Made by a program: the position numbers and the translations under genes
In this document: positions 2,911 through 60,423 of the stretch, piece after piece
Layout of the letters: every line of letters starts with the position of its first letter
How positions within the stretch are numbered: the stretch's first letter is position 1
Notes under the pieces: model-generated
Databases searched by the model: none
Told to the model about the DNA's origin: nothing
What the model saw: the letters and a program-made list of their open reading frames with translations, nothing else
Source: Thermoanaerobaculia bacterium
Lineage (GTDB): Bacteria > Acidobacteriota > Thermoanaerobaculia > Gp7-AA8
NCBI GenBank assembly: GCA_035626775.1
Contig: DASPNA010000078.1
Location: 42,771-106,770 of the forward strand
Direction of reading: 5' to 3'
Length of the DNA stretch: 64,000 bases

Positions 2911-3137
2911 TGGCGCGCTCGAAACTGGCCGAACAACTCCGGCAGGAACAGGCCGCCGCGATCGCGGGGCTGACGCCGCAGGAACGCCTCGACCTCGCGT
3001 TCGAGCTCGGCCGGCGCGGCATCGAGATGTACATGAGCGCGCACCACGTCGACCGCGAGACCGCCGCCCGCGAACTGAAACGCGCCGGCCGGGCCGGGCG
3101 ACGCTACTCGCGTTGCATGGACGACGAGACGCCGTGA
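2911..3137 (+). CDS. Small protein, putative antitoxin-like partner of the downstream nucleotidyltransferase
   Basis: ORF reads MARSKLAEQLRQEQAAAIAGLTPQERLDLAFELGRRGIEMY... Its stop TGA (3135-3137) overlaps GTG 3134 of the next ORF as GTGA, suggesting translational coupling. Confidence 0.4.
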
Positions 3138-3600
3138 ACGCGATCGTGGTACGCGAAATCCTCGATCGCGCAAACATCCAGTTTGCGCTGATCGGCGCGG
3201 CTGCCGTGGCATTGCGTGGCCTGCCGCGCTTCACGCAGGACACCGACTTCTTCACCACGGACCGGCGCGTCCTTCAGCGTGATTTGTGGGACGTCCGATC
3301 AGGTCGATGTCGTCGTCGGCAAGTACAAGTGGGAGCAGCAGCTCCTCGCGCGCGCGGAGCGAATGGATTTGTTCGGCGCATCCGTGCTCGTTCCAGCACG
3401 AAGCGATCTCATTCTGATGAAACTCGCCGCCGGCGGCTACAAAGACCTGATCGACGCGGCCGGTCTGCTGTCGCTTGGGCCACGCGATGAATTGATTGCA
3501 GACGTGGCTTCGCGGATCGGCGACCTGTCCCGCGAAGCGCAGGCAAGCTGGCTCACCTTCTTCGCGAAACGAAGTAACTCAGGCCGGAAAACAGTCGACT
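3134..3600 (+). pseudogene. Pol-beta-superfamily nucleotidyltransferase, frameshifted near 3300
   Basis: Frame 2 reads VNAIVVREILDRANIQFALIGAAAVALRGLPRFTQDTDFFT (G-x-DxD NTase motif). The sequence continues in frame 0 as DQVDVVVGKYKWEQQLLARAERMDLFGASVLVPARSDLILMKLAAGGYKDLID. A single extra base near tcaGgtcgatg breaks the frame. The true 3' end is unclear. Confidence 0.5.
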
Positions 3601-3642: not shown

Positions 3643-4671
3643 ATGATGCGTCGGAAGTCCACCGCGACAGTCCTTTTCCTCGGGTTTCTCCTATCCGAAA
3701 CGGTGACTGGACAGGAACGACAGCTTCAGCAGGATCTCGCGCCGCTCGAGAAACGCGTGCGCGCCCTCGAGCAGCTTCTGCGGGACGCACCGGAACGTTT
3801 CGTCACGGAATCATTGGAGTTGTCGGCCGCATATCACGAAGCGGCAAAGCGCCACGCGAAGGTCACGCAAAGCGCCGGCGCGCGAAGCGACGCAGTGACA
3901 ATCCTGATACGCGCAGCGTTCGCGACGCGACAGATCCTTCGTCAACCGGAGCGAGCCCTCGATCTCTATCGCCGCGCCGCGGCACTGCATGCGGAACGAT
4001 ATCCTTCCGCGCGCGAGGCGGCGTTCCGGGACGAGATCGCGGACATCCAGCAGTTTGACCTTCGTGACCATGCAGCCGCAGCGAACACCCTCGAGCGGCT
4101 TCGCGAGTTCGAGAAGGCTCACGCGACCAATCAGGGAGAGATGGCGGGATGGAGTGCCTGGAGGGCGCAATGGCTGGACGCGGAGATCACGTATCTCCGT
4201 TCGAAGAAGGCATTCGCCGGCACCGTCAATGCCGCCGCGATGACCGGATTGATCGCACAGATCTATTACGGTGCGGGCACTGTCGGCTCTGTCCCGCTCG
4301 ACCCAGCGTTGAACATTTACAGTGAGACGTCGTTGTCACCCGCCGAGATCGAAACGAAGCTGGCGGCGCTTCCCGCATCACACACGACATTCCTCCAGAC
4401 TTGGATGTTCGCCACCAAATTACCCACGCCGGCCGCCGCACAGAAGTGGTTGACCCGTAATGACCCGGCCGGCTATTGGAGCGCGTCGCTCCTCACTCTG
4501 GCAGCGGTTGCGGAACGCGATCTCGACGCGTCTGCGGACCCGAAGTCCAATGTCGTGGCCAGTCTGATCCGTACGGAATCCAGGAAGCCAACGGCGTTCG
4601 CGCTACTGGCACGCCAATACGCGAAAACGCGTCGCCTGCCGCCGCCGATGCAGTTGAATATCGGTCATTGA
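3643..4671 (+). CDS. Secreted or periplasmic hypothetical protein
   Basis: ATG 3643 followed by MMRRKSTATVLFLGFLLSETVTGQ, a signal-peptide-like N-terminus, in a long open frame. Confidence 0.55.
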   Translation: MMRRKSTATVLFLGFLLSETVTGQERQLQQDLAPLEKRVRALEQLLRDAPERFVTESLELSAAYHEAAKRHAKVTQSAGARSDAVTILIRAAFATRQILRQPERALDLYRRAAALHAERYPSAREAAFRDEIADIQQFDLRDHAAAANTLERLREFEKAHATNQGEMAGWSAWRAQWLDAEITYLRSKKAFAGTVNAAAMTGLIAQIYYGAGTVGSVPLDPALNIYSETSLSPAEIETKLAALPASHTTFLQTWMFATKLPTPAAAQKWLTRNDPAGYWSASLLTLAAVAERDLDASADPKSNVVASLIRTESRKPTAFALLARQYAKTRRLPPPMQLNIGH

Positions 4672-7616: not shown

Positions 7617-8564
7617 GGCTCTACTCTCCTCATGCCTTTCGCTGCTGCTTTCGAGAACTGACTACGCAGCAGAGGAGGGCCGTTCGATCACTGCAAAGGA
7701 GATCGGCCGGATGCGCTTCGCGAGCTCTGTTACGAACGCCGCCGGGTTGCCCGATGTCCCTCGATCGAATTTCCGTCCCCTGCCTCCCCCAACACGGCTC
7801 GCGGGCGACCCGTTTTTCGACGGCAGCTCCGCTGAATGGGGGCGCTGACGGCGAATCGCGGATGGCGAGGAGCTAAATCACAACATCACCGAAATGCCGG
7901 CCGGAACGACTTGGTGGAAGGGGTTTGAGGCACAGCAGTCTTGACTTTGACCGTCACCTGATAGCCGCGGATCTGGAGACGAACCGAACGGACCGGGGGA
8001 TGGTTTGCAGGACGTGTATCGTGCTTCAAATCCTTCATAGTCCTCCCTCACTTCCTCGCATTGTCGTTGTGGCGAGTAAGCTACGCCCGCACCTCGGGGA
8101 AGTCAAGCCAACACCCCCAACATCTTGTGGTGCCCGCGATGAAGAACACAACATCCTGCGTAACTATTCGACTTTGCAGTAAGTTACGTCTTTGCGTCCC
8201 GTCGGGTCCGGCAGAAGCTTTTCCGCCTCGGTTCCACCGCTTATCCGCCGGTTCTAGACAGGCTTTCCGCAGGCTTTTGCACAGGGTCGATTATGCAGAT
8301 TTCTTCGGGAATCCACATGTTCTCCACAGGATTCGGACTAGTTATCGTGCCATAAATCAGCAGCGATACAGCGCTGATTTTCATCAGCTTTTTCGTGCTT
8401 TTTCCATGCGTAGGGAGGCGGACTGGACTGAAAGAAAAAGGGCGAAAGAAGGGCGGAATCCGAAAACTGCGGAAAAGTCGGCGAGGGCAGACGCGGGCAC
8501 TACATCTTGTGGGCGAGAGAGGCAGTGCACACACAATGTGGCACGTGGAACATTTTTCCGCCTG

Positions 8565-9524: not shown

Positions 9525-10444
9525 GTGCGCCACTCCCGCACGCGCGAGTGAATCGCGAGGAGGCCGGCGATTGCGCCGACCATGGAAAGCGGGACGAACA
9601 GGAACATCCACTCTTTGTCGTCCACCACTTCATAGAACAGGACGTTGATGGCAAGCACCGCATAGAGGAACGAGTAAAGGACGAACAACTCGCCACGCCT
9701 GCTGATCCCCCAGACCGTGACCATTCCGGCGATGATGAGCACCAGCAGACACCCGATGACGGCGGTGTGGTTGTCGAACATCAGCGCGCACGAGCCGGCG
9801 AACGCAATGTTCGCCGCGAAGTGTTCGAACGACGGCGCGAAATCGCGCGCTTCGCGTTGCGGATCGAACCGCTCATGCGCCGAACGCCACATCAGCAGCA
9901 ACAGCGCGCACGCGAACGCGCGGATCGCATAGTCGGTCGCGGCGCTCGATTCCACGTCGCGCACGCCCAGCCACGCCGTCACCGCCGTGATGGACAGCGA
10001 CAGCACGATGCGCGAGCGGAAGACGTACGCCGTGACCGCGTGCCCGATGGCCGTGATCAGAAAGTGCCGTGGCCACGCGTCGCCGAGCAGATGAAACTGC
10101 GACTCGATGAACGCGACGTCGCCGCTGAGCAGCAGCGCGCCGAGGAGGAGGACGTAGTCGTCGACGATTGAGGCGCGTGCACGACGCCACCAGGCGAACG
10201 CGTAACACGCCGCCGCGGCAACCGCCATCAGCACGGCCAGCGCGAGCGGCCCGATGCGATCGAGGTTGTTCTTCAGCACCAGCCCGGCCGCGGTGGCGAG
10301 CAGCAACGCTCCACCCCACGACAGGACGCGCAGCTCGGGATGGAGCGAGAAGACCTCGCGGCGCTCGCGCGCGATCAGCTCGTTCGTGTTCTTGTCGCCG
10401 AGGATGGGACGGAGCTGTTCCAGCTCCGGCTCGTAGGAGAGCAT
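9521..10444 (-). CDS. Polytopic membrane protein, paralog-like neighbour
   Basis: ORF MLSYEPELEQLRPILGDKNTNELIARERREVF... with multiple TM helices. Confidence 0.6.
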   Translation of the reverse strand: MLSYEPELEQLRPILGDKNTNELIARERREVFSLHPELRVLSWGGALLLATAAGLVLKNNLDRIGPLALAVLMAVAAAACYAFAWWRRARASIVDDYVLLLGALLLSGDVAFIESQFHLLGDAWPRHFLITAIGHAVTAYVFRSRIVLSLSITAVTAWLGVRDVESSAATDYAIRAFACALLLLMWRSAHERFDPQREARDFAPSFEHFAANIAFAGSCALMFDNHTAVIGCLLVLIIAGMVTVWGISRRGELFVLYSFLYAVLAINVLFYEVVDDKEWMFLFVPLSMVGAIAGLLAIHSRVREWRT

Positions 10445-10460
10445 CGACGAATGTTACTGC

Positions 10461-10571
10461 GACCCCTCATCCGCCTTCGGCACCTTGTCCCCTCGCCGAG
10501 GGGAGAAGGCTACCCAGGTAGCCCTCGCCCCGCTTGCGGGGAGAGGGTGGCCAAAGGCCGGGTGAGGGGTC
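10461..10571. repeat. Palindromic element family 4 (GACCCCTCATCCG ... CGGGTGAGGGGTC terminal inverted repeats)
   Basis: Terminal inverted repeats GACCCCTCA/TGAGGGGTC, with internal hairpins CCCCTCGCCGAGGGG and CCCCGCTTGCGGGG. Related copies at 27237-27342 and 57204-57294. Confidence 0.7.
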
Positions 10572-10592
10572 GCTCTCAGCCCGTCGCTCCAG
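10569..10592. repeat. Half copy of palindromic element family 3; forms the 3' end of the CreD-like CDS
   Basis: gtcgctctcagcccgtcgctccag. On the minus strand it encodes ...SGATG plus the stop TGA of the CreD-like gene. Confidence 0.65.
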
Positions 10593-20914: not shown

Positions 20915-21103
20915 ATCGATCCACGTTTTCGCAACACGCTCCGTATCTACAGCACGATGCAGATGCGCGTCTCGGTCGCGGTAGGCAACGTCACGATTCT
21001 CGTCGAGCACCTCACGGTCCCGTTGCCGATCCAGACGTGGGCGTTCATTACCGTCGCCAACAACGAAACGCAGGCGATCTCCACGATCACGCCGCAGCCG
21101 TAA
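20915..21103 (+). pseudogene. C-terminal fragment of a third IPT-paralog copy
   Basis: IDPRFRNTLRIYST...WAFITVANNETQAISTITPQP* matches the C-termini of the two downstream paralogs. It is followed by the same GGAGAAGA-ttcgATG junction. Confidence 0.5.
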
Positions 21104-21117
21104 CGGAGAAGAATTCG

Positions 21118-22113
21118 ATGCGATTCACGATCAAGCTCACGCTCCTGACGCTGCTCGCGACGTTGCCGCTCGCGGCGCAAACGAGCTACACCATCACTCC
21201 GGACAACGGTCCCACCTCCGGCGGCACACACGTCACGATCAAGGGCGACTTCGGCCAATGGCCGTATAGCGTGGACTTCGGCGACATCTCTGTGCCCGCG
21301 ACTCGCGTTGATGAGCACACGTTGACGGCGATCACGCCGCCGCACATGCCGGGCCGAGTCGACGTCGTGATCTTCGAGTACGACATCGGCATCACGACCG
21401 ATCTCACGTTCGAGTACATCGGGACCATGCCGGATGACTATGCACGGTTGCTTCTTCCGGTGTTTACGCCGGCCGTGCACGGCGCGTTCGGCTCGATCTT
21501 CGTCAGCGACCTGCGCGTGCTCAATTACGGAGGCATGTCGGCATCGATCCACGGCCTGGTGGCGGATTGTGCGCCGGTGATTTGCATCCCCTCCGAAGGT
21601 CCGTACGACCTCAGCCCGGGATCGGAAACGACGAACTTCGTCCCGAATGGCAATCCCGGCCGATTCGTGTACGTGAAGAAGGACCAGGCCGTGGGGCTGG
21701 CGATGAATCTGCGCGTATACGACACGACACGCGAGGCGCTCAACTTCGGCACCGAGATCCCGATCGTGCGCGAAGACGAGATGCCGCTGAACCGCGTCGT
21801 CTTCACGGGCGTCCCGACCGACCCGCGTTTTCGAAACACTTTGCGCATCTATTCGACGTTCCCATTCACGGCGATCGTCACCGTGGGCAATCGCGCGCCG
21901 GTACGCGTGCGGATGTTGGACACGACCGGGATCTACGATCCGTCTTACGCGATCTTCGGTGACTTTCCGGCGGACGGAAATCCCGTGCGCGTGACGATCG
22001 ATGCGGAGCTCGACTTCCAGACGCTGCTGCCGGTCGACGTACCGATCTGGGCGATGATCACGGTCACGAATAACGAAACGCAGATGATCTCGACGATCAC
22101 TCCGCAACCGTAA
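21118..22113 (+). CDS. Secreted IPT/TIG-domain protein, paralog 1
   Basis: Signal peptide MRFTIKLTLLTLLATLPLAAQ, then ITPDNGPTSGGTHVTIKG (IPT-like). About 90% identical to the next gene. Confidence 0.8.
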   Translation: MRFTIKLTLLTLLATLPLAAQTSYTITPDNGPTSGGTHVTIKGDFGQWPYSVDFGDISVPATRVDEHTLTAITPPHMPGRVDVVIFEYDIGITTDLTFEYIGTMPDDYARLLLPVFTPAVHGAFGSIFVSDLRVLNYGGMSASIHGLVADCAPVICIPSEGPYDLSPGSETTNFVPNGNPGRFVYVKKDQAVGLAMNLRVYDTTREALNFGTEIPIVREDEMPLNRVVFTGVPTDPRFRNTLRIYSTFPFTAIVTVGNRAPVRVRMLDTTGIYDPSYAIFGDFPADGNPVRVTIDAELDFQTLLPVDVPIWAMITVTNNETQMISTITPQP

Positions 22114-22127
22114 TGGAGAAGATTTCG

Positions 22128-23123
22128 ATGCGACTTACGCTCAAGCTCACGTTCCTGGTGCTGCTCGCGACATCGCCACTCGCGGCGCAAACGAACTACA
22201 CGATCACTCCGGACAACGGTCCCACCTCAGGCGGCACACACGTCACCATCAAGGGCGACTTCGGCCAATGGCCGTATGGCGTGATCTTCGGCGGCGTCTC
22301 TGTGCCCGCGACGCGCGTCGATGAGCACACGTTGACCGCAGTCACGCCGCCGCACATGCCCGGCAAGGTGGAGGTCGTCATCTTCGAGTTCGACATCGGC
22401 ATCAACACCGATCTCACGTTCGACTACATCGGGCCGGTCCCGGATGACTACGCACGGTTGCTCCTGCCGGTATTCACGCCGCCGGTGCACGGCGCGTTCG
22501 GCTCGCTGTTCTTCAGCAATCTGCGCGTACTGAACTACGGAGGCGCGACAGCATCGATCTACGGGCTCGAAATGGTCTGCGCGCCGATCCTCTGCATCCC
22601 GTTCGAAGGTCCGTTCGACCTCGGCCCCGGCTCAGAATCGACGGACTTCGTCCCGAACGGCAATCCCGGCCGCTTCGTGTACGTGAAGAAGGATCAGGCC
22701 GTGGGGCTGGCGATGAATTTACGCGTGTACGACACGACGCGCGAAGCGCTCAACTTCGGCACCGAGATCCCGATCGTGCGCGAGGAGGAGATGCCGCTGA
22801 ACCGCGTCGTCTTCACGGGCGTCCCGACCGATCCGCGTTTTCGCAACACGCTGCGCATCTATTCGACGTTCCCATTCACGGCGATCGTGACGATCGGAAA
22901 TCGACCGCCGGTGCGCGTGCGGATGTCGGACACCAACGGCATTCACGATCCGTCGTACGCCCAGTTCGGCGACTTTCCGACCGACGGCAATCCAGTACGC
23001 GTGACGATCGACGCGGAGCTCGACTTCCAGACGCTGCTGCCGGTCGACGTACCGATCTGGGCGATGATCACGGTCACGAACAACGAAACGCAGATGATCT
23101 CGACGATCACGCCGCAACCGTGA
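22128..23123 (+). CDS. Secreted IPT/TIG-domain protein, paralog 2
   Basis: MRLTLKLTFLVLLATSPLAAQ...; tandem duplicate of 21118..22113. An alternative ATG at 22113 would overlap as TAATG. Confidence 0.8.
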   Translation: MRLTLKLTFLVLLATSPLAAQTNYTITPDNGPTSGGTHVTIKGDFGQWPYGVIFGGVSVPATRVDEHTLTAVTPPHMPGKVEVVIFEFDIGINTDLTFDYIGPVPDDYARLLLPVFTPPVHGAFGSLFFSNLRVLNYGGATASIYGLEMVCAPILCIPFEGPFDLGPGSESTDFVPNGNPGRFVYVKKDQAVGLAMNLRVYDTTREALNFGTEIPIVREEEMPLNRVVFTGVPTDPRFRNTLRIYSTFPFTAIVTIGNRPPVRVRMSDTNGIHDPSYAQFGDFPTDGNPVRVTIDAELDFQTLLPVDVPIWAMITVTNNETQMISTITPQP

Positions 23124-23220
23124 CGAGGGGTCCCTCGGGTTCCTCGGTTCCTCGGGTTCCTCGGTGGGATAGGTTGCCCAATCGCCCACCCCGAGGAACC
23201 CGAGGAACCCCGAGGAACCG
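23124..23220. repeat. Palindromic element family 1
   Basis: gaggggtccctcgggttcctcggttcctcgggttcctcgg ... ccgaggaacccgaggaaccccgaggaaccg, between convergent genes. Confidence 0.75.
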
Positions 23221-24527: not shown

Positions 24528-25553
24528 TTAGAAGAGTTTGCCTTCGTGCGCGCCGCCGAGCGGGTAGCCGAGATGCGCGTAGGCAGTACGGCTGGCGACG
24601 CGGCCGCGCGGCGTGCGTTGCAGGAAGCCGATCTGGATGAGGTAGGGCTCGTAGAGATCTTCGATCGTGCCGCGATCTTCGCCGATCGACGATGAGAGAG
24701 CGTTCACACCGACCGGGCCGCCGCGGAACCGCTCGATGATCGTCGTGAGCAGCTTGCGATCGATCTCGTCTAGGCCGTACTCATCGACCTCGAGCATGCT
24801 CAGCGCGCCGCGCGCAATCGCCACATCCACTCTCCCCTCATGCCGCACCTCGGCGAAATCACGAACGCGGCGCAGCAGACGATTGGCGATGCGAGGTGTC
24901 CCGCGGGAACGGCGTGCGATCTCCACGGCCGCTTCCGGAGCAACTGCGATGCCGAGGATGTCGGCGGAGCGGCTGACGATGACGGTGAGCGATTCGACGT
25001 CGTAGAAATCGAGGCGATGCACGATGCCGAATCGCGCGCGCAACGGCGCCGTCAATAGTCCCGCTCGCGTCGTTGCGCCAACCAGGGTGAAGCGCGGCAG
25101 CTCGACCTTGAGCGTGCGTGCGGCCGGACCCTGGCCGATGACGACGTCGACGTGAAAGTCTTCCATCGCGGAGTACAGCACTTCTTCGACGATGGGAGGC
25201 AGACGATGGATCTCGTCGATGAACAGCACGTCGCCTGCTTCGAGGTTCGTTACGATCGCGACGAGGTCGCCGGGCTTCTCCAGCGCCGGACCGGAGGTAG
25301 AGCGCATGCTCGCGTTCATCTCGTTCGCGATGATGTTCGCGAGCGTGGTCTTGCCGAGGCCGGGCGGGCCGAAGAGAAGTACGTGATCGAGCGATTCGCT
25401 GCGCTTGCGCGCGGCGCTCAATGAGATCTCGAGGTTCGCTTTGACCTTGTGCTGGCCGATGTACTCGCGCAGAAGGCGCGGCCGCAGCGAGAGCTCGGTC
25501 TGAAGATCTTCCTGGTCTGGTGTCGGAGCGAGGATGCGGTCGTCCGTGGTCAC
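24528..25553 (-). CDS. ruvB: Holliday junction branch-migration helicase
   Basis: [14 protein letters not shown] (Walker A) and DEIHRL, full RuvB length. Confidence 0.95.
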
Positions 25554-27232
25554 TGCGCCGTAGTGTAGCCGAGCGTCGATGATGCGGCCGCGGACGCAAC
25601 GCGCGTGGGCAGCGATACCGTGATCGAGCTGCCCGCGCCTTCGCTCGACGTCACGTCGATCTTCCCTCCATGCTCCTGCACGATGCGATACGAGATGGCC
25701 ATGCCCAGGCCGGTGCCGGTGGGAAAGTTCGTGCGGAAGGGCTGGAAGAGGCGGCGCAGATCGGCTTGCGACATGCCGCGGCCGTTGTCGGAGAACGTGA
25801 TGCGATACGAGCCGTCGACGACAGTCGTGCGGACGGTGAGCACACCACCTTGCGGCATGGCCTGCACCGCGTTGCGCGCCAGGTTCCAGAACACCTGGCG
25901 GATCTGGTCGGCATCGCCGACGAGATGGAACGACGGCGGATCGATGTCGCGGCGGATCTCATGATTGCGATGGAGCTCGGGCGAGTTCTGCAAAAGATCG
26001 AGCGTTTCGGAAAGGTTGGCTGCGACGTCGTACTCCAGCGCGCGTTTTTCCTGCGGACGGACGAAGCGGAGAAAGTCGGAGATCGATTTATTCAACCGCT
26101 CCGATTCTTTCAGCACGATCGACATGAGGCGCTGTTCCTGCGCGGTCAGTGACGTCGATCCTTTGAGCACTTGCACCGATCCTGCGATGGCGGCGAGCGG
26201 ATTTCGGATCTCGTGCGCGATGCCGGCGGACAGCTCGCCCACCGCGGCCATCCTGTCCTTGAGGCGAAGCTCGGCCTCGAGCTTCTTCATCTCGGTGAGG
26301 TCCTGAAAGATGAGCGTGTAGCCCGCGGCAGCACCTTCCAGCGTGCTGAGTGGACTGACCGCGAAGCCGATGTTTCGCGCCGCGCCGGCCACGGTCACGT
26401 CGTCGATCTCCTTGCGCACGACGACACCCGCCGCGAGCTCTTCCCGTGCCTCGTTCCAGTGGTCCATGTCCAGAAAACCGAGCTCCGTCACGTGCCGGCC
26501 GAGAATCGCTTGCGGTTCCATCTGCAGGATCTGCGAGCCGGCGGGATTCACGAACGATGCGGTGCCGAACGACGAGAGCGTGATGAGGCCGGACGGGATC
26601 GATTCGACGACGTTCTGATTGAGCGCGCGGAGCTCGGCGAGGTTCTGGCGATTCGCATCGAGCTCGCGCGCGGTGCGCTGCAATTGTTCGGAGAGATACG
26701 ACGTGAGCAGCGCGGTCGCGTAGAAGCCGAGGAAGTTCGCGGCCATGTTGAAGTAGAGGCGCGAGGCGGACCAGTCGATCTCCAGCGACTGCGACTGCGC
26801 GGGCATCGGCAGCACGCGGTAGTAGAGAAGGTCGACCAGAACGCCGTAAAGGATCACCGCGCCCGATGCGGCGAGCAAACCGCCGCGCCGATAGAGCAGC
26901 ATCGACGCGGTGATGATCGAGACGAGATAGAGAAACGAGAACGGGGAATCGAGTCCGCCGGTAAAGTAGACCAGTAGTGTCTCGACGAGCAGATCGCCGG
27001 CGATCTGGATCATCACGTTCACGGCGCGCGACGGGACCGTAAAAGCGAGCCCGATGTAGAGGAGCGTGAGCGCGTACGTCACGCCGGCGGCGATGTAGAG
27101 GTAGTCGATGGGCAGGACTTCGCCGACCGTGTATTGAATGATGAGCGCGGCCAGCAGCAGCGTGGTGACGACGACCACGCGGACCGCGATGAGCATGCGG
27201 GTGTCGCTGGACATGGTCGGCACGCGACTCAT
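25550..27232 (-). CDS. Sensor histidine kinase (N-terminal TM region, PAS, HisKA, HATPase)
   Basis: [11 protein letters not shown]-box plus a G-x-G-L-G ATPase block. ATG at 27232. 4-nt overlap with ruvB. The extension to 27310 in the ORF track is repeat-derived. Confidence 0.85.
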
Positions 27233-27236
27233 GGTA

Positions 27237-27342
27237 ACCCTCGCCCCGCTTGCGGGGAGAGGGTGGCGCGCAGCGCCGGGTGAGGGGGACCCCTCATCCG
27301 CCTGCGGCACCTTCTCCCCTCGCGGAGGGGAGAAGGCTACCT
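27237..27342. repeat. Palindromic element family 4, permuted or tandem-partial arrangement
   Basis: ccctcgccccgcttgcggggagagggtggc...ccgggtgaggggg acccctcatccgcctgcggcaccttctcccctcgcggaggggagaaggctac. Confidence 0.7.
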
Positions 27343-27351
27343 GGGCGGCGT

Positions 27352-28554
27352 CTATCCGATCTGCGAGATCAGCGAGAACATCGGCATGTACATCGCGATG
27401 ACGATGCCGCCGATGGCGACGCCGAGGAAGGCGATCAGGACCGGCTCGAGGAGTTTCATGAGGCCGGCCACCGCGAGATCGACTTCGTCCTCGTAAAAGT
27501 CGGCGATTTTCGAAAGCATCGTGTCGAGCGCACCGGTCTGCTCGCCGACCGCGATCATCTGCACGACCATCGGCGGGAACACTTCGGTGTCACCGAGCGG
27601 CTCGCTGATCGTCTTGCCCTCTTCGACCGACTTGCGCGTGGCCATGATCGCGTCCTCGATGATTGAATTGCCGGCGGTGCGCGCCGTGATCTGCAGGCCG
27701 TCGAGGATCGGAACGCCCGACGAAGTCAGCGTCGACAACGTGCGGCAGAAACGGGCCACGGCGATCTTGCGCAGCAGCATGCCCAGGACCGGCGCGCGCA
27801 GCAGCAACCCGTCGATGACGCGCTTCCCTTTGTACGTCTCGCGATACTTGCGCACTGCGTAGACGGCGACGATGGCCAGGATGGTGATGAGCCACCAGAA
27901 GTCGCCGATGAAGTTCGACATCGCGATGACGACGCGCGTCGGCAGCGGCAGCTCCGCGCCGAGGCTGGCAAAGAGGGAGGCGAACACCGGGATGACCTTC
28001 CAGAGAATGATCATCACGACGATGACGGCGATGCTGATGACGGCGACCGGATAGATCATCGCCGACTTCACCTGTGAGTTCAGCTTGACCGACTTTTCGA
28101 TGTAGGTGGCCAGGCGCTGCAGGATGGTGTCGAGGATACCGCCCGCCTCACCGGCGGCGACCATGTTCGTGTAGAGATCGTTGAAGACCTTGGGGTGCTT
28201 GCGCATCGCGTCGGCGAGGTTGGAGCCGGACTCGACGTCCTGCCGCACCTGGATCAGCGTGCGCTTGAAAGCCTTGTGATCCTGCTGCGAACCGAGGATC
28301 TCCAGACACTGCACGAGTGGGAGACCGGCGTCGATCATGACCGAGAACTGGCGCGTGAAGATCGCCACCGACTGGGCCGGAACGCCGCCGCCGAACTTCG
28401 GCAGCGCGATCTCCTTCCCTTTTTCCTTGACGGCGGTGACGACGATCTGCTGCCGCCGCATCATGTTGATGACGGCGTCTTTCGAGTCGGCCACCAGCAC
28501 ACCTGTCTGCGTCTGACCGTTTCTCGCTGTGCCCTTCCACTCGAATGTCGGCAT
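27352..28554 (-). CDS. pilC: Type IV pilus assembly platform protein (GspF family)
   Basis: 400 aa. Two GspF-type repeats and three TM segments. Confidence 0.9.
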   Translation of the reverse strand: MPTFEWKGTARNGQTQTGVLVADSKDAVINMMRRQQIVVTAVKEKGKEIALPKFGGGVPAQSVAIFTRQFSVMIDAGLPLVQCLEILGSQQDHKAFKRTLIQVRQDVESGSNLADAMRKHPKVFNDLYTNMVAAGEAGGILDTILQRLATYIEKSVKLNSQVKSAMIYPVAVISIAVIVVMIILWKVIPVFASLFASLGAELPLPTRVVIAMSNFIGDFWWLITILAIVAVYAVRKYRETYKGKRVIDGLLLRAPVLGMLLRKIAVARFCRTLSTLTSSGVPILDGLQITARTAGNSIIEDAIMATRKSVEEGKTISEPLGDTEVFPPMVVQMIAVGEQTGALDTMLSKIADFYEDEVDLAVAGLMKLLEPVLIAFLGVAIGGIVIAMYMPMFSLISQIG

Positions 28555-28571: not shown

Positions 28572-28637
28572 CTGGAGCGACGGGCTCTCAGCCCGTCGAG
28601 CCCTGCATTTCGACGGGCCGAGAGCCCGTCGCTCCAG
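28572..28637. repeat. Palindromic element family 3, full copy
   Basis: ctggagcgacgggctctcagcccgtcg agccctgcatttcga cgggccgagagcccgtcgctccag. Confidence 0.75.
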
Positions 28638-28651
28638 TTCAGCTCCCGATT

Positions 28652-29779
28652 TTACGCCGGTCTTGGTCTCGCGCCCGCCGACGCAGGCGGACCCTGCGGG
28701 ACGATGGCGCCCGCGCCGCGCGAGATCATCTCCTGCAGCTCGTCCGGATTGGACGAGCGCGCCAACGCGGTCTGCAACGTGATCAGCTTCTTGAAGTACA
28801 GGGTCGCCAGCGACTGATTGAACGTCTGCATGCCGTACTTCGCCTGTCCGGTCTGCATCATCGAGTAGATCTGATGCACCTTGTCTTCACGGATGAGGTT
28901 GCGGATGGCGGGGTTCGGTACGAGGATCTCCATGGCCATGGCGCGGCCTTTTCCGTTCGCCTTGGGCAACAACGCCTGGCAGAGGATGCCTTCCAGCACG
29001 AACGACAACTGCGCGCGGATCTGCGGCTGCTGGTGCGCGGGAAAGACGTCGACGACGCGGTTGATCGTCTGCGCGGCCGAGTTCGTGTGCAGCGTGCCGA
29101 ACGTGAGGTGGCCCGTTTCGGCGATGCGCAGCGCCGACTCGATGGTCTCGAGGTCGCGCATCTCGCCGATGAGTACCACGTCGGGATCCTGACGCAGGGC
29201 GGACTTCAGCGAGTTGCCGAACGAGTGCGTATCGGCGTGCAGCTCGCGCTGGTTGACGATGCAGCTCTTGTGTTGATGGAGGAACTCGACCGGATCTTCG
29301 ATGGTGATGATGTGCTGATGGGTCTCGCGATTGATCTTGTCGATCATCGCGGCGAGCGTCGTCGATTTGCCCGAGCCGGTCGGACCGGTGACGAGCACGA
29401 GGCCGCGCGGCTTGCTGCAGATCTCTTCGACGACCGGCGGCAGTCCGAGCTCCTTGAAGCCGAGGATCTCGTACGGAATCTGCCGGTAGACCGCGGCCGT
29501 CGCGCCGCGCTGGTTGAAGATGTTCGCGCGGAAGCGCGCCAGCCCCTTGATGCCGAACGAAAGGTCGAGCTCGAGGTTTTCCTCGAAGCGATGCTTCTGC
29601 GCGTCGGTGAGCACCGAATACGCGAGCTGCTTGGTCTCCGGCGCGGTGAGCGGCGGGATGTCGAGCGGCACCAGCTTGCCGTCGATGCGAATCTGCGGAG
29701 GGGAGTTGGTCGTGACGTGGAGGTCGGAGCCTCCGCGCTCGACCATCGTCTTGAGGAGCTGGTGCAGTGTGATGGCCAT
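28652..29779 (-). CDS. pilT: Type IV pilus retraction ATPase
   Basis: MAITLHQLLKTMVERGGSDLH..., GPTGSGKSTTLAAMI (Walker A). ATG at 29779. The upstream ORF extension is derived from the AT-rich palindrome. Confidence 0.9.
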   Translation of the reverse strand: MAITLHQLLKTMVERGGSDLHVTTNSPPQIRIDGKLVPLDIPPLTAPETKQLAYSVLTDAQKHRFEENLELDLSFGIKGLARFRANIFNQRGATAAVYRQIPYEILGFKELGLPPVVEEICSKPRGLVLVTGPTGSGKSTTLAAMIDKINRETHQHIITIEDPVEFLHQHKSCIVNQRELHADTHSFGNSLKSALRQDPDVVLIGEMRDLETIESALRIAETGHLTFGTLHTNSAAQTINRVVDVFPAHQQPQIRAQLSFVLEGILCQALLPKANGKGRAMAMEILVPNPAIRNLIREDKVHQIYSMMQTGQAKYGMQTFNQSLATLYFKKLITLQTALARSSNPDELQEMISRGAGAIVPQGPPASAGARPRPA

Positions 29780-29815
29780 TGGTCCTGTCTCTCCAGTGCT
29801 ACATGCTTCGCGAGT

Positions 29816-29918
29816 GGAAATTGAAAATTGAAAATTGAAAATTGAAAAATCGGACTCCGGGTCGCGCGAGGCACCGACTTTCGTTTTTTCAATTTTCAAT
29901 TTTCAATTTTCAATTTCG
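29816..29918. repeat. AT-rich palindrome, (GAAAATT)x4 ... (CAATTTT)x4, family 5
   Basis: ggaaattgaaaattgaaaattgaaaattgaaaaatcgg ... ccgactttcgttttttcaattttcaattttcaattttcaatttcg. A stem of about 33 bp, between pilB and pilT. Confidence 0.8.
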
Positions 29919-31752: not shown

Positions 31753-32490
31753 TCAGCGCGGCAGCGGCGGCGGGTCACTGGCCGTCACGCCCTCGGTGAC
31801 TTTGTTGAGCGTCGCGGTGATGCTGCCGAACTTCACTTCGGTACGAATGCGCAGCGGCAGACGGCGCTCGTCATCGGAGTACCAGATGAACAGCTTCTCT
31901 TCGCGCTGCACGCCGGCGCTGGCCATCTGCGGCTCCACCAGCAGCGCGTTGAACGTGCCAAGCGGCGTCGTGATCTGCTCGCGCTTCACCACGTTGCCGT
32001 ACACGGTGTAGAGCTTGCCGCCGTCGATCAGTTTCAATTCATACGACTTCCCGGGTGCGAGCTCGAGCGTCCGGAAGTAATAGATGACGGAGATGGGATC
32101 GAAGATCGGACGGGGCACCGGCGTCTTGCGGATCTTCTTCCGCTTGCGAGACGCGACGCCGTCTTCGATGGTGATGGTCTCGCGCATCTTGTCGCCGCGC
32201 TCGTCGAGGCTCTTCACGATCTTGATGGTGGAAAAGTCTTCGCGCGCGACGGTGGTCTCGATCTCGTCCCGGATGCGGAAGAGGCGGCCCAGACCACCCC
32301 CGGACTTGGCCACGGAAGTGATGCGATAGTGCGCGTCGTCGTGCGGCGAGATGGTCATGCGCGCGGTACCGCCCGTGACCTTCATCCAGGTGACGGTGAA
32401 GTCGAGCGTCTCTCCTGCCTCGTACGTATCGTGGAGCGGACCGGCGATGGACGCGGAAACCGCGAAGAGAACCGCGAGCGCAAAAGTCAC
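31753..32490 (-). CDS. DUF3108-family protein
   Basis: Signal-peptide-like N-terminus and DUF3108-like size and composition. 4-nt overlap with the upstream GT9 gene. Confidence 0.65.
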   Translation of the reverse strand: MTFALAVLFAVSASIAGPLHDTYEAGETLDFTVTWMKVTGGTARMTISPHDDAHYRITSVAKSGGGLGRLFRIRDEIETTVAREDFSTIKIVKSLDERGDKMRETITIEDGVASRKRKKIRKTPVPRPIFDPISVIYYFRTLELAPGKSYELKLIDGGKLYTVYGNVVKREQITTPLGTFNALLVEPQMASAGVQREEKLFIWYSDDERRLPLRIRTEVKFGSITATLNKVTEGVTASDPPPLPR

Positions 32491-33407
32491 TCCGCGGTGA
32501 CCCTTCCCAGCATCGTCATCACCTCTTCAACACTTATCGAGTCCATCCATTTCGTGGTGGAAAAACGGTCGATGCAATGTTGCAGTTGGTGATACGGACC
32601 GTTGCGCCGTGGATTGGTCGGGCCGTAGAGGCCGATGACCTTCGTCCCGAGCGCGTCCGCGAGGTGCAGCGGGCCGGTGTCGCCGCCGATGACGACCTCT
32701 GCACTTTGGAGCAGACCTGCAAGCTCACGCAGGTTCGTCGACGGCGCGATACGAGCTCCGATCGCTTCCGCGAGCTCCCGTTCTCCCGGCCCCCACGCCG
32801 CGACCGCGCGCGGACCGATGCGCTTTGCGAGCTCGCGAAAACGCTCGACGGGCCACAGTTTGTTGGCCTTTCCGGCACCCGGGAGCAGGACGATGGAGTT
32901 TTCATAGCCAGGAACCGGAACCGCGAAATCGTCCCAATTCTGGAGCGACGGGCTCTCAGCCCGTCGGGTCTCGAGGTCGACCGGCTGAGAGCCCGTCGCT
33001 CCAGATGCGAGCTGCAGGTTTTGATCGATGACGTGCGACGCCGCATCGACACGTACGTGGCGGTTCGTGAACAGGAGCGCGGCTTTCTCGCGGATGGCGT
33101 GGCGATCGAATCCGTATCGCGTTTTCGCACCTGACAACCATCCGAGCGCCGCCGATTTGATCAGTCCCTGAAAGTCGACAGATGCATCGAAGCCGCGCGC
33201 GCTGCGAATCGCGCGAATGGCAGCTCGCGGTTCTTTCTTCATGCGCACCGGCAGCACCTCCACACCCGCGACGATCTCCACGAGCTCGCGATACGGCGCT
33301 TCGACGACCCACGTGACGTCCGCCGCGTTCTTGAGCGACACGACCGCGGGGATGGTGTGAATGACGTCGCCGAGTGCTGACAGACGAAGGACGAGCAGAC
33401 GGCTCAT
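32487..33407 (-). CDS. Glycosyltransferase family 9 (ADP-heptose:LPS heptosyltransferase-like)
   Basis: [22 protein letters not shown]...[24 protein letters not shown] (GT9 signature). ATGA overlap with hldC at 33404-33407. Contains an in-frame family-3 repeat. Confidence 0.8.
32940..33004. repeat. Palindromic element family 3, full copy embedded in-frame within the GT9 CDS
   Basis: ctggagcgacgggctctcagcccgtcg ggtctcgaggtcgac cggctgagagcccgtcgctccag. Translated on the minus strand as [21 protein letters not shown]. Confidence 0.75.
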
Positions 33408-41742: not shown

Positions 41743-41796
41743 CGTCACGATTTGGAGTGCGGCAACGCCTGCTGGTGCCGCACTCCAAAACCCGCC

Positions 41797-48224: not shown

Positions 48225-49280
48225 TCAGGCGATCCGAGAACGAGCCTCGACACGCCGCGGATCGCCGGCGTTGCCTTTTTGTAACCCCGCGAACGCGATC
48301 ATGGCCGCGTTGTCGGTGCAATAGCGCTTCTCCGGCAGGCGCACCACCACGCCGCGATGCTCGCCCCACGCGAGCATCCGCTCGCGGATGACTCCGTTGG
48401 CCGCCACACCGCCTGCAAGCGCCACCGCTTCGGGCTTCTCCCCTTCCAACCGCTGCCATATCGAATCGAGGCGATCGAAGAGTTGCGCGACGAGCGCTTC
48501 CTGAAAGGTCGCGCAGAAATCCTGGAACAACGGGCTCTCGGCCCATTCCGGATTTTCGTCGGGCTGAGAGCCCGTCGTTCCAGCCTGGATGGCGTGCTCG
48601 CGCGCGAGCCGGATCGCACCCGCTTTCAGGCCGCTATACGAAAAGTCCAACGACTCGTCGCGGAACTGCGGCACGACGAACGGGAACCGCTTCGCATCGA
48701 CCTTGCCGGCGCGTCCGTGTTTTTCGATCTCCGGCCCTCCGGGATACGGCAGGCCAATGAACTTCGCGACTTTGTCGAAGGTCTCGCCGATCGCATCATC
48801 GCGCGTGCGATTGAGCTGGCGGATGTCGCTGCCGCGCACGTCGTAGATCGCGGAGTGGCCACCGGAGATCACGAGCGAGAGAAAGCGCGCCGGCAACGGC
48901 AGCGCCGCTCCTTCGCGTTGCAGAAAAGGCGAGTAGATGTGACCTTCGAGATGATTGACGGGCATCAGCGGAATGCCCAATCCGTACGCGAGTCCCTGCG
49001 CGCCGGCCACGCCGACGAGCAACGCGCCGATCAATCCCGGACCCGACGTCACCGCAATCGAGTCGACGTCACTCCATTGCGCATTCGCGTCACCAAGCGC
49101 GCGCTCGACGAGCGGAAACAGATGCTGCAGATGCTCGCGCGACGCGATCTCCGGCACCACGCCGCCGAACGGCTGATGCCGCGCGATCTGCGAGTTGATC
49201 AGGTTCACGCGCACGTTCCCGTCGCGCTCGAGCAGAGCGACGGAAGTCTCGTCGCAGGACGTTTCGATTCCGAGGATCAC
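48225..49280 (-). CDS. tsaD: tRNA N6-adenosine threonylcarbamoyltransferase
   Basis: MILGIETSCDETSVAL..., HLEGH and GGVAAN motifs. Confidence 0.9.
   Translation of the reverse strand: MILGIETSCDETSVALLERDGNVRVNLINSQIARHQPFGGVVPEIASREHLQHLFPLVERALGDANAQWSDVDSIAVTSGPGLIGALLVGVAGAQGLAYGLGIPLMPVNHLEGHIYSPFLQREGAALPLPARFLSLVISGGHSAIYDVRGSDIRQLNRTRDDAIGETFDKVAKFIGLPYPGGPEIEKHGRAGKVDAKRFPFVVPQFRDESLDFSYSGLKAGAIRLAREHAIQAGTTGSQPDENPEWAESPLFQDFCATFQEALVAQLFDRLDSIWQRLEGEKPEAVALAGGVAANGVIRERMLAWGEHRGVVVRLPEKRYCTDNAAMIAFAGLQKGNAGDPRRVEARSRIA
48557..48583. repeat. Half copy of palindromic element family 3, in-frame inside tsaD
   Basis: cgtcgggctgagagcccgtcgttccag, translated as ...TTGSQPDENPEWAESPLFQ... 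Confidence 0.65.
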
Positions 49281-49328
49281 TCGCGCGGTAACGCGCGTCG
49301 GGCGGCGGAACGTTCCCGGCGCCGGGCG

Positions 49329-49477
49329 CAGAGTCTCAGAGTCTCAGAGTCTCAGAGGGTCGGTGGGACTCGCCGTTTTCAGAGCGGAGCAATCCGCGTT
49401 ACCGGAAATTCAGAGAAACGCCCGTCCCCACGACCCTCTGAGACTCTGAGACTCTGAGACTCTGAGACTCTGAGACT
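49329..49477. repeat. Palindromic element family 2, large copy
   Basis: (cagagtct)x3-4 gagggtcggtgggac ... gtccccacgaccctc (tgagactc)x4. Confidence 0.8.
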
Positions 49478-49533
49478 TCACGCAACGATCCGCACGCGTC
49501 CATTCGCGCGACGCTCCGAGCACGCGCCCTATA

Positions 49534-57203: not shown

Positions 57204-57294
57204 CCCCTCATCCGGCGCCTTCGGCCACCTTCGCCCCGCGCCGCGGGGCGAAGGCTACGAGGCGCGTGCCAAGGTGCCGAAGGCGGATGAGGGG
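57204..57294. repeat. Palindromic element family 4, compact variant
   Basis: cccctcatccg gcgccttcggccaccttcgccccgcgccgcggggcgaaggctac ... cggatgagggg. Confidence 0.7.
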
Positions 57295-60299: not shown

Positions 60300-60325
60300 A
60301 ATCGGCGCGGTATATCACACGGAGG

Positions 60326-60423
60326 GAGTTCCTCGGGTTCCTCGGTTCCTCGGAGGGGAACGCGATGTGATGCTCCTCCCCTCCGAGGGACCCGAGGTAC
60401 TCCGAGGAACCCGAGGAACTCAC
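60326..60423. repeat. Palindromic element family 1
   Basis: gagttcctcgggttcctcggttcctcggaggggaa ... ccctccgagggacccgaggtactccgaggaacccgaggaactc. Confidence 0.75.

Follow-up and report, generated by a model that had tools for sequence, protein, structure and literature searches.

Two unrelated palindromic repeats, here termed family 3 and family 4, appear to have invaded the junction between creD and the downstream gene coding for a DUF2157 membrane protein in a free-living soil acidobacterium of the class Thermoanaerobaculia, represented by a metagenome-assembled genome (MAG). Family 3 appears to have replaced the codons of the CreD tail and to supply the working stop codon of the gene, and we assign this reading as a whole a probability of roughly 85%. 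The stretch analyzed comprises 64,000 nucleotides with a G+C content of 63.5% (hereafter the window), and the features that make up the junction are the following:

10576..11799, minus strand: gene coding for a CreD-family inner-membrane protein of 407 aa, ending in ...TARVKWGTPSGATG* (ORF list and Pfam)
10578..10597, minus strand: family-3 fragment with strict 20-nt identity (GCCATCTGGAGCGACGGGCT), encoding P-S-G-A-T-G and the T of the stop codon
10572..10577, minus strand: GAGAGC, which supplies the GA of TGA and agrees with the loop as it is oriented in the second arm of family 3 (GGGCTGAGAGCCC)
10461..10571, no strand assigned: family-4 palindrome, two units of ~54 nt head to head, with the terminal inverted repeat GACCCCTCA/TGAGGGGTC
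10445..10456, minus strand: relic of the ancestral creD stop (TAA, 10454-10456) and its 9-nt spacer (CATTCGTCG), aligning with relatives L082 and L081
9521..10444, minus strand: DUF2157 membrane-protein gene (Pfam PF09925), the conserved partner downstream of creD

The creD product is 100% identical to P0001, named by NCBI as 'inner membrane CreD family protein [Thermoanaerobaculia bacterium]', and it matches the Pfam profile PF06123 (CreD) with E=3.4e-12, the profile ending at a W located eight residues before the stop. Its start lies at 11799 (MTRNVV...), giving 407 aa as in the database entry; the start at 11955 proposed by the ORF list was rejected as a TTG-initiated extension across another repeat. 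That upstream repeat belongs to a family built on the unit GGTTCCTCG, with window copies at 11857-11893, 23125-23170 and 60323-60359, and it is the copy upstream of creD that lets the mechanical reading frame reach 11955 (...GTEEPEEP...). On the minus strand, the end of creD reads GTG AAA TGG GGG ACG CCA TCT GGA GCG ACG GGC TGA (...VKWGTPSGATG*), with the stop codon at 10578-10576.

Further repeats were noted across the window. At 12524-12627 and 49295-49514, the 8-nt unit GAGTCTCA is arrayed together with its complement into long inverted repeats; an inverted pair of GAAAATT tandem arrays with 36-nt arms, 97% complementary, lies just upstream of pilT (29815-29917); a repeat with a period of ~80 nt is present in four copies in the gap between a DUF1028 gene and creD (12077-12366); and three tandem copies with a period of ~1010 nt and 81-88% identity (21038-23125) correspond to an apparent triplicated gene or segment ending in ...ISTITPQP*.

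Family 3 is a nested palindrome of ~66 nt composed of two 27-nt arms, CTGGAGCGACGGGCTCTCAGCCCGTCG and the inverted CGACGGGCTGAGAGCCCGTCGCTCCAG, separated by a spacer of 10-11 nt. The arms are 96% complementary, the copy within the GT9 gene folding at -63.6 kcal/mol, and each arm has in addition its own 8-9-bp hairpin, formed by an inner palindrome, GACGGGCT-loop-AGCCCGTC, that all arms share. The stem of this hairpin measures 8 bp (9 with the flanking C/G) and its loop 3 nt (CTC/GAG), which an open closing T-A pair would widen to 5 nt, while the tail GCTCCAG(AT), which includes CCA, spans 7-9 nt and pairs with the other arm; an A-T pair is found at the second stem position only. Besides the creD end, the element was located at these sites, L172 and L173 being contigs that flank the window in the same genome and overlap it with 100% identity:

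15733-15799, no strand assigned: full family-3 doublet filling the gap between convergent stops
28572-28637, no strand assigned: full family-3 doublet within the intergenic pilT-pilC spacer (pilT stop at 28652, pilC start at 28554)
32939-33005, minus strand: full family-3 doublet, 66 nt or 22 codons, in frame in the GT9 heptosyltransferase gene (32487-33407)
48522-48583, minus strand: full, somewhat degenerate family-3 doublet, in frame in tsaD (48225-49280), read as AIQ AGTTGSQPDENPEWAESPLFQ DFCATFQ
L172:2320-2353: single family-3 arm, close to the C-terminus of a short-chain dehydrogenase (SDR) and ~7 kb outside the window on its start side
L173:15358-15391: single family-3 arm directly after a TAG

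Family 3 is therefore present at seven places in ~82 kb of this genome, as four dimers and three single or partial copies, and four of the seven overlap coding sequence. Single arms, also seen in L168, are a natural state of the element.

The match of the creD end to this family is extensive. The string TCTGGAGCGACGGGCT reproduces the outer 16 nt of a family-3 arm without mismatch, and the outer 15-16 nt of all full arms are identical to the creD-end fragment; with the single-arm copy at L173:15358-15391 the identity reaches 20 nt (10578-10597), and the match amounts to 26 nt once GAGAGC is included. A search with an 18-mer allowing up to three mismatches returned six occurrences, all of them in family-3 copies, against 0.17 expected from shuffled sequence. 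Local alignment of the creD end scored 32 with the full doublet and 44 with the single-hairpin form (a 22-nt match), the shuffled controls averaging ~16-17 and none of 300 attaining the observed score. The piece also keeps the frame that family 3 has in the GT9 gene, where SGATGSQP results. The original prediction that a family-3 element encodes the CreD C-terminus, and that the same words give GATGSQP in GT9, is borne out. The coordinates that it gave to the half copy (10569-10592) were a few bases off, the element-derived stretch running from 10572 or 10578, depending on the assignment of GAGAGC, to 10597.

That this resemblance should be coincidental, or that an ancestral tail should have lent its end to the repeat family, is highly improbable. 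The tail is admittedly short and some orthologs finish in similar small residues (..SAATA, ..STATA, ..EEATA), but these use other codons, with AGC instead of TCT for Ser and GCN instead of GGC in the last position, and the shuffled controls never attain the alignment score. A borrowed end is at odds with the creD copy being the truncated element and not the reverse, and with the relic of an old stop downstream. At the protein level, the CreD tail beyond the TAR-x-W motif is hypervariable, covering ~2-20 residues among 120 orthologs, and a C-terminal SGATG is found in none of these 120, nor among 80 species representatives; repeat-free orthologs sharing these end residues, which would have spoken against a contribution of the repeat, were thus not encountered in that set.

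The comparison with relatives suggests the state that preceded the repeats. Neither family 3 nor family 4 is present at this site in the five closest repeat-free relatives (L081, L082, L163, L165 and L166), where 0-16 nt separate the creD stop from DUF2157, and the gene order creD-DUF2157 is the same in L082, L163-L166 and L172:

L082 (80% protein identity): TGG GGC CAG CCG CAG CCG GCA CGG GCG TAA CATCCATCG ATG, with a spacer of 9 nt
L081 (85% protein identity): TAA lost through a 1-nt deletion, the frame running into a TGATG overlap with DUF2157
L163, L165 and L166 (74-77% protein identity): own stop codons, with spacers of 13-16 nt

In the window, creD and DUF2157 lie 131 nt apart, and the order of elements is the creD TGA, GAGC, family 4 (111 nt, taking up most of the spacer) and GCAG TAA CATTCGTCG ATG. 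The final portion, TAACATTCGTCG-ATG, aligns with TAACATCCATCG-ATG of L082 ahead of the DUF2157 start, and hence the old stop and its spacer persist 119 nt downstream of the working creD stop, beyond family 4. Taken together, the relic stop downstream and the repeat-free relatives lead us to conclude that the old stop gave way to repeat DNA, which now provides the end of creD, in agreement with the earlier proposal that a palindrome had remodelled a gene terminus; the creD-end piece also adjoins the family-4 palindrome, as had been claimed, and abuts it directly. The closest relative compared is 85% identical, and the pre-insertion sequence is known at that distance only.

An error of assembly at the repeat junction would be an equally improbable account. 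Repeats are classic sites of mis-joining and the source is a MAG, but the order creD-DUF2157-next gene is that of the relatives, the repeats are far below assembly k-mer or read lengths, and the junction is base-for-base identical, over 11.4 kb, in a separately assembled contig (L172, JGI 3300021067).

The L081 locus (4400-4465) provides a separate observation, for its CreD is six residues longer and its tail has been remodelled independently, in a second way, the long tail arising from the 1-nt loss in TAA. A 9-nt match within that long tail, GAGCCCGTC, was considered as a decayed family-3 copy and discarded, given that 37-56 of 300 shuffles equal it.

The proposal that relatives lacking the element might extend further does not hold: CreD has 407 aa in the window and likewise in the repeat-free P0003, and the tail comprises eight residues past W in the window protein as well as in P0003, P0012 and P0036. 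The change in creD is a like-for-like swap of 5-6 residues, neither a truncation nor an extension. It is probably neutral at the protein level, judging from a tail that is unconserved, lies outside the conserved domain and keeps its length.

Based on these comparisons, a history of the creD end can be put forward, in which the order of events, the mode of movement (REP/REPIN-like, in trans and without target duplications) and the neutrality for the protein are what we infer. In the ancestor, creD and DUF2157 would have been joined by 0-16 nt, as they are in the relatives. A family-3 copy would then have landed in the dispensable CreD tail, either as a single REP-like arm or as a doublet that later collapsed, and would have replaced ~15-18 nt of tail-coding DNA (5-6 codons) with a sequence read as (P)SGATG, the frame of which would run into a TGA carried by family 3 with its second-arm inner loop. 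Family 4 would most likely have inserted into, or deleted, the distal half of that copy, leaving the old TAA and spacer stranded 119 nt downstream. The distal half was sought beyond family 4, where only GCAG, possibly a terminal CAG, was found, a match that is not significant.

The first-arm sequence of family 3 would read GGC TCT CAG CCC (G-S-Q-P) and stay open, and it is the second-arm loop orientation (GGGC TGA GAGCCC, not GGGC TCT CAGCCC) that puts TGA in frame. Of the earlier claim that a half copy of family 3 supplies the stop, the T stands, and the GA corresponds to the second-arm loop orientation or to the family-4 junction, not to first-arm sequence. The TGA may have arisen through the collapse of a doublet across the 9-nt internal direct repeat CGACGGGCT, through a flip of the loop or, less likely, from the end of family 4; simple hairpin forms do occur, as illustrated by the single hairpin of a sister family between convergent genes at 41751-41789. 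From its sequence, GAGAGC (10572-10577) likely, though not certainly, belongs to family 3.

The last of these origins can be developed into an alternative, in our view an unlikely one, according to which the stop was made at the junction of the two repeats, with T from family 3 and GA from an extended family-4 end, and family 4 truncated an earlier in-frame family-3 insertion that had extended the tail. Such a scheme would draw on the fact that family 3 is open in the GATGSQP frame, where an intact arm would have read through, and on a family-4-type copy in L167, each end of which has GAGAGCCG beside CCCCTCA with the offset that GAGAGCGA shows in the window. Conversely, GAGAGC beside CCCCTCA is seen at none of the five other family-4 ends of this genome, and GGGCTGAGAGC is an exact 11-nt match to the second family-3 arm.

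Other family-4 copies were also observed. The L167 copy (3114-3239) is a family-4-type palindrome that encodes the end of an FMO-like monooxygenase, final codons and TAA included (...LRESRPSP*), from which it follows that family-4-type elements also rebuild gene ends. Within the window, further copies are found at 57204-57294 and at 27250-27345, the latter between the pilC stop (27352) and a histidine-kinase gene, where it inflates the N-terminus of the mechanical reading frame 25550-27310 (MPQADEGSPSPGAARHPLPASGARVT...).

A clean insertion of family 3 is contradicted by the absence of the ancestral 5-6 codons from the creD end. Another alternative, slightly less probable than a stop made at the repeat junction, is that templated repair, or gene conversion, copied the new tail from a family-3 element elsewhere at pre-existing microhomology (GCGACGG, GCC), with no transposition-like insertion. 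Such a patch would explain the unchanged codon number, that is, the shared length of eight residues past W. Several repeat-free orthologs, moreover, end in GCG ACN GCN stop (A-T-A*), in register with GCG ACG GGC TGA of the window, GCG AC being in register in the orthologs of L165 and L166. On this sequence comparison, a few of the bases attributed to the element at the creD end may have pre-existed as microhomology. At all four comparable sites, the variable segment was replaced (33 to 66 nt in GT9, 24 to 39 nt in TsaD of L168 and 11 to 67 nt in the Ddl/UbiA spacer, in addition to creD itself), and the end of the TsaD arm, GTCGA, coincides with the GTCGA of the empty site. Against templated repair, the microhomologies span 3-7 nt and are compatible with chance at 64% G+C, the empty sites come from relatives of 77-87% identity that perhaps do not represent the pre-insertion state, and the relic stop 119 nt downstream still needs a real insertion of at least family 4. 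An invasion of the junction by both repeats remains the reading that we favor.

The description of family 3 as a mobile element agrees with its dispersed, near-identical copies and with the empty orthologous sites, and its mobility itself would follow from that distribution. The element was absent from 1.68 Mb of creD neighbourhoods from ~165 other Acidobacteriota and from the viral contigs searched, and an Rfam search of the whole window gave no family. For neither family 3 nor family 4 did a search for target-site duplications give a convincing case, the flanks of the four full family-3 copies (GA/AT, CC/TT, TT/AT and TC/CC) showing no duplication. Transposase genes were likewise not found adjoining the family-3 copies, the neighbours of which are the Ddl-like, UbiA, pilT/pilC, GT9, tsaD, creD and SDR genes, and no RAYT gene was seen among these neighbours. 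To our knowledge, no transposase has been assigned to REPs of the CGTC type, to which family 3 is compared below.

Beyond creD, the copies of family 3 in coding sequence and in gaps between genes show how the element is accommodated. In GT9, the insert lies in the inter-domain linker, where a relative (P0243/L170) has 11 residues. In TsaD, the product of an essential tRNA-modification gene, the insert AGTTGSQPDENPEWAESPLFQ lies in a variable loop, corresponding to a gap in the alignment to Salmonella TsaD (3zet_B), and the protein has 351 aa here against 339 aa in orthologs. The net gain over repeat-free orthologs is thus 11 aa for GT9 and 12 aa for TsaD, and the Pfam matches are full length in both. 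A TsaD that is 93% identical (P0122/L168) has a single arm at the same site (SGTTGSQPVEGP), and the SDR in L172 ends in ...EPSGATDSQPVELAVLT*, with a single family-3 arm in frame. The doublet at 15733-15799 lies exactly between two stops, the TGA (15730-15732) of a Ddl-like gene (14719-15732, plus strand) and the TAG (15800-15802) of a UbiA-like gene on the minus strand, in a place where the spacer of L167 measures 11 nt, its Ddl-like protein being two residues longer.

All four coding occurrences of family 3 share one frame, the three outside creD giving the peptide S/A-G-A/T-T-G/D-S-Q-P (SGATGSQP in GT9, AGTTGSQP in TsaD and PSGATDSQP in the SDR). If three frames were equally likely, four out of four would be expected with p ~0.04, a value that is suggestive only. 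The notion that stop codons force the shared frame was tried and rejected, because three of the four full copies leave 4-5 of the six frames open, and the copy at 15733 only one.

Several observations concern related palindromes. In L171 (126-1046), a GT9 gene of 85% identity has a different 66-nt nested palindrome, TATGGAGTGCGGCAGCGCCAGCTGCCGC...CCGCACTCCATA, within the same linker boundaries as 32939-33005, and it shares with family 3 the TGGAG/CTCCA ends only. The GT9 linkers of P0244, P0248 and P0259 contain shorter or longer palindrome versions, and the 'empty' linker of P0257 (NAVAAATAPEP) resembles one arm of the L171 palindrome. This sister family (TGGAGTGCGGC...), to which the L171 palindrome belongs, is present in this genome at 41751-41789 of the window, at L172:4788-4902 and 8132-8227 and near 12472 in L173, one of the copies ending 2 nt from a stop codon.

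We would raise, as a tentative and rather doubtful idea, though one that we rate above either of the two alternatives to the creD history, that family 3 and the sister family (TATGGAGTGCGGC...) occupy persistent slots, such as loops, linkers, tails and stop-to-stop gaps, in which they are renewed in place in a non-random manner. A slot of this kind would fit a TsaD site with a singlet in one lineage and a doublet in another, a GT9 linker that in two lineages holds two different 66-nt palindromes with identical boundaries, the replacement of, and not the addition to, the variable segment at every comparable site, and the single reading frame of all four copies that overlap coding sequence. If true, it would imply a hairpin-directed, site-conservative replacement, through excision and re-insertion or through conversion, and in addition selection for one tolerated peptide, in a free-living acidobacterium and in a CGTC-tagged class of REPs. 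In-frame, same-frame occupation of loops (TsaD, GT9, SDR), together with turnover at identical sites in relatives, is in our opinion a more interesting lead than the creD end, and the matched empty, singlet and doublet states of orthologous sites could help explain how CGTC-type REPs move.

With respect to function, the likeliest physiological consequence of the creD event concerns operon expression rather than protein function. The two genes would no longer be translationally juxtaposed, and a very stable predicted RNA hairpin would now lie between them: the RNA of 10436-10606 (minus strand) folds at -99.1 kcal/mol (z = -5.4). The tight creD-DUF2157 junction presents no obvious ribosome-binding site in either state, suggesting translational coupling of the two genes, and no terminator-like site was found at the junction. 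In E. coli, a REP situated no more than ~15 nt from a stop codon can reportedly lower the translation of the gene that precedes it. The fold predicted for the junction brings the family-3 piece GGAGCGACGGG into pairing with UUCGUC..GCUCU, around the AUG of DUF2157, whose start region carries three substitutions with respect to L082 (CCATCG to TCGTCG and CTG to CTC) that raise this complementarity, perhaps by chance. As regards annotation, the repeats encode the stop of creD together with 5-22 residues in each of the creD, GT9, TsaD and SDR products, and naive reading-frame calls are here also inflated by repeats at 5' ends.

Regarding its place among known systems, the description that suits family 3 best, by comparison with published accounts, is that of a REP/REPIN-like element carrying the CGTC tag; no published description of such elements was found for this lineage. 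According to Di Nocera, De Gregorio & Rocco 2013 (PMC3733652), CGTC-tagged REPs, which include RPE-4 and RPE-6 of Rickettsia conorii and dRS3 of Neisseria, have a stem of 8-9 bp, a loop of 4-5 nt, a short unpaired CCA tail and A-T pairs at the first two stem positions. As in that account, the stem of family 3 ends in CGTC (AGCCCGTC), head-to-head dimers predominate and contribute ~20-30 aa when intragenic, and the units lie in known genes and at the ends of reading frames with no adjacent transposase gene; the stem measures 8-9 bp, with a small loop of 3 or 5 nt depending on the closing T-A pair. The outer part of family 3, CTGGAG/CTCCAG(AT), contains CCA but is longer than the 3-nt tail described, and of the first two stem positions the second has an A-T pair. 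The same paper states that the termini of REPs frequently contribute a stop codon to the reading frame beside them and that ~10% of intragenic CGTC-tagged units lie at reading-frame ends; it speaks of five CGTC-positive phyla and, in its text, mentions Acidobacteria for tyrosine transposases only (PMC3733652).

REPINs are REP doublets that form hairpins (Bertels & Rainey 2011, PMC3116915), and family 3 likewise consists of two inverted REP-like palindromes with a short spacer that form one long hairpin, singlets (presumed remnants) co-exist, no target-site duplication is seen and the near-identical copies are lineage-specific. In SBW25, however, REPINs are overwhelmingly extragenic, with 14 of 1,067 16-mers overlapping genes, whereas four of the seven family-3 sites overlap coding sequence; and neither end of family 3 has the GTAG tag, nor do the genes around its copies include a cognate RAYT (an IS200-like Y1 transposase), which in the REPIN/RAYT system is flanked by REPs (PMC3116915). 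Family 3 has terminal inverted repeats but, unlike a MITE derived from a DDE transposon, no target-site duplication.

The insertion of family 3 in frame in conserved genes with reading frame and domain intact (GT9, TsaD) recalls the Rickettsia palindromic elements (RPEs; Ogata et al. 2000, as reviewed in PMC10969869), which insert in frame in unrelated housekeeping genes and the peptide of which is apparently tolerated in loops and linkers. The RPE-1 type spans ~100-150 bp against the 66 nt of family 3, the host is here a free-living soil acidobacterium instead of an obligate intracellular alphaproteobacterium, and no sequence relationship between family 3 and RPEs is apparent (PMC10969869). 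The present case would add a free-living soil acidobacterium to the short list of bacteria in which REP-like palindromes are tolerated in frame in housekeeping genes. The same outcome as at creD is seen with QMITE1 and QMITE2 of Coxiella burnetii, which reach 1-50 bp into the 3' ends of functional genes and confer their last residues or stop without a significant change in protein size, although these elements are larger and have terminal inverted repeats and direct repeats, whereas family 3 lacks target duplication (PMC5896051). The creD event is, in sum, a fresh example of a phenomenon already documented for REPs, RPEs and the Coxiella QMITEs.
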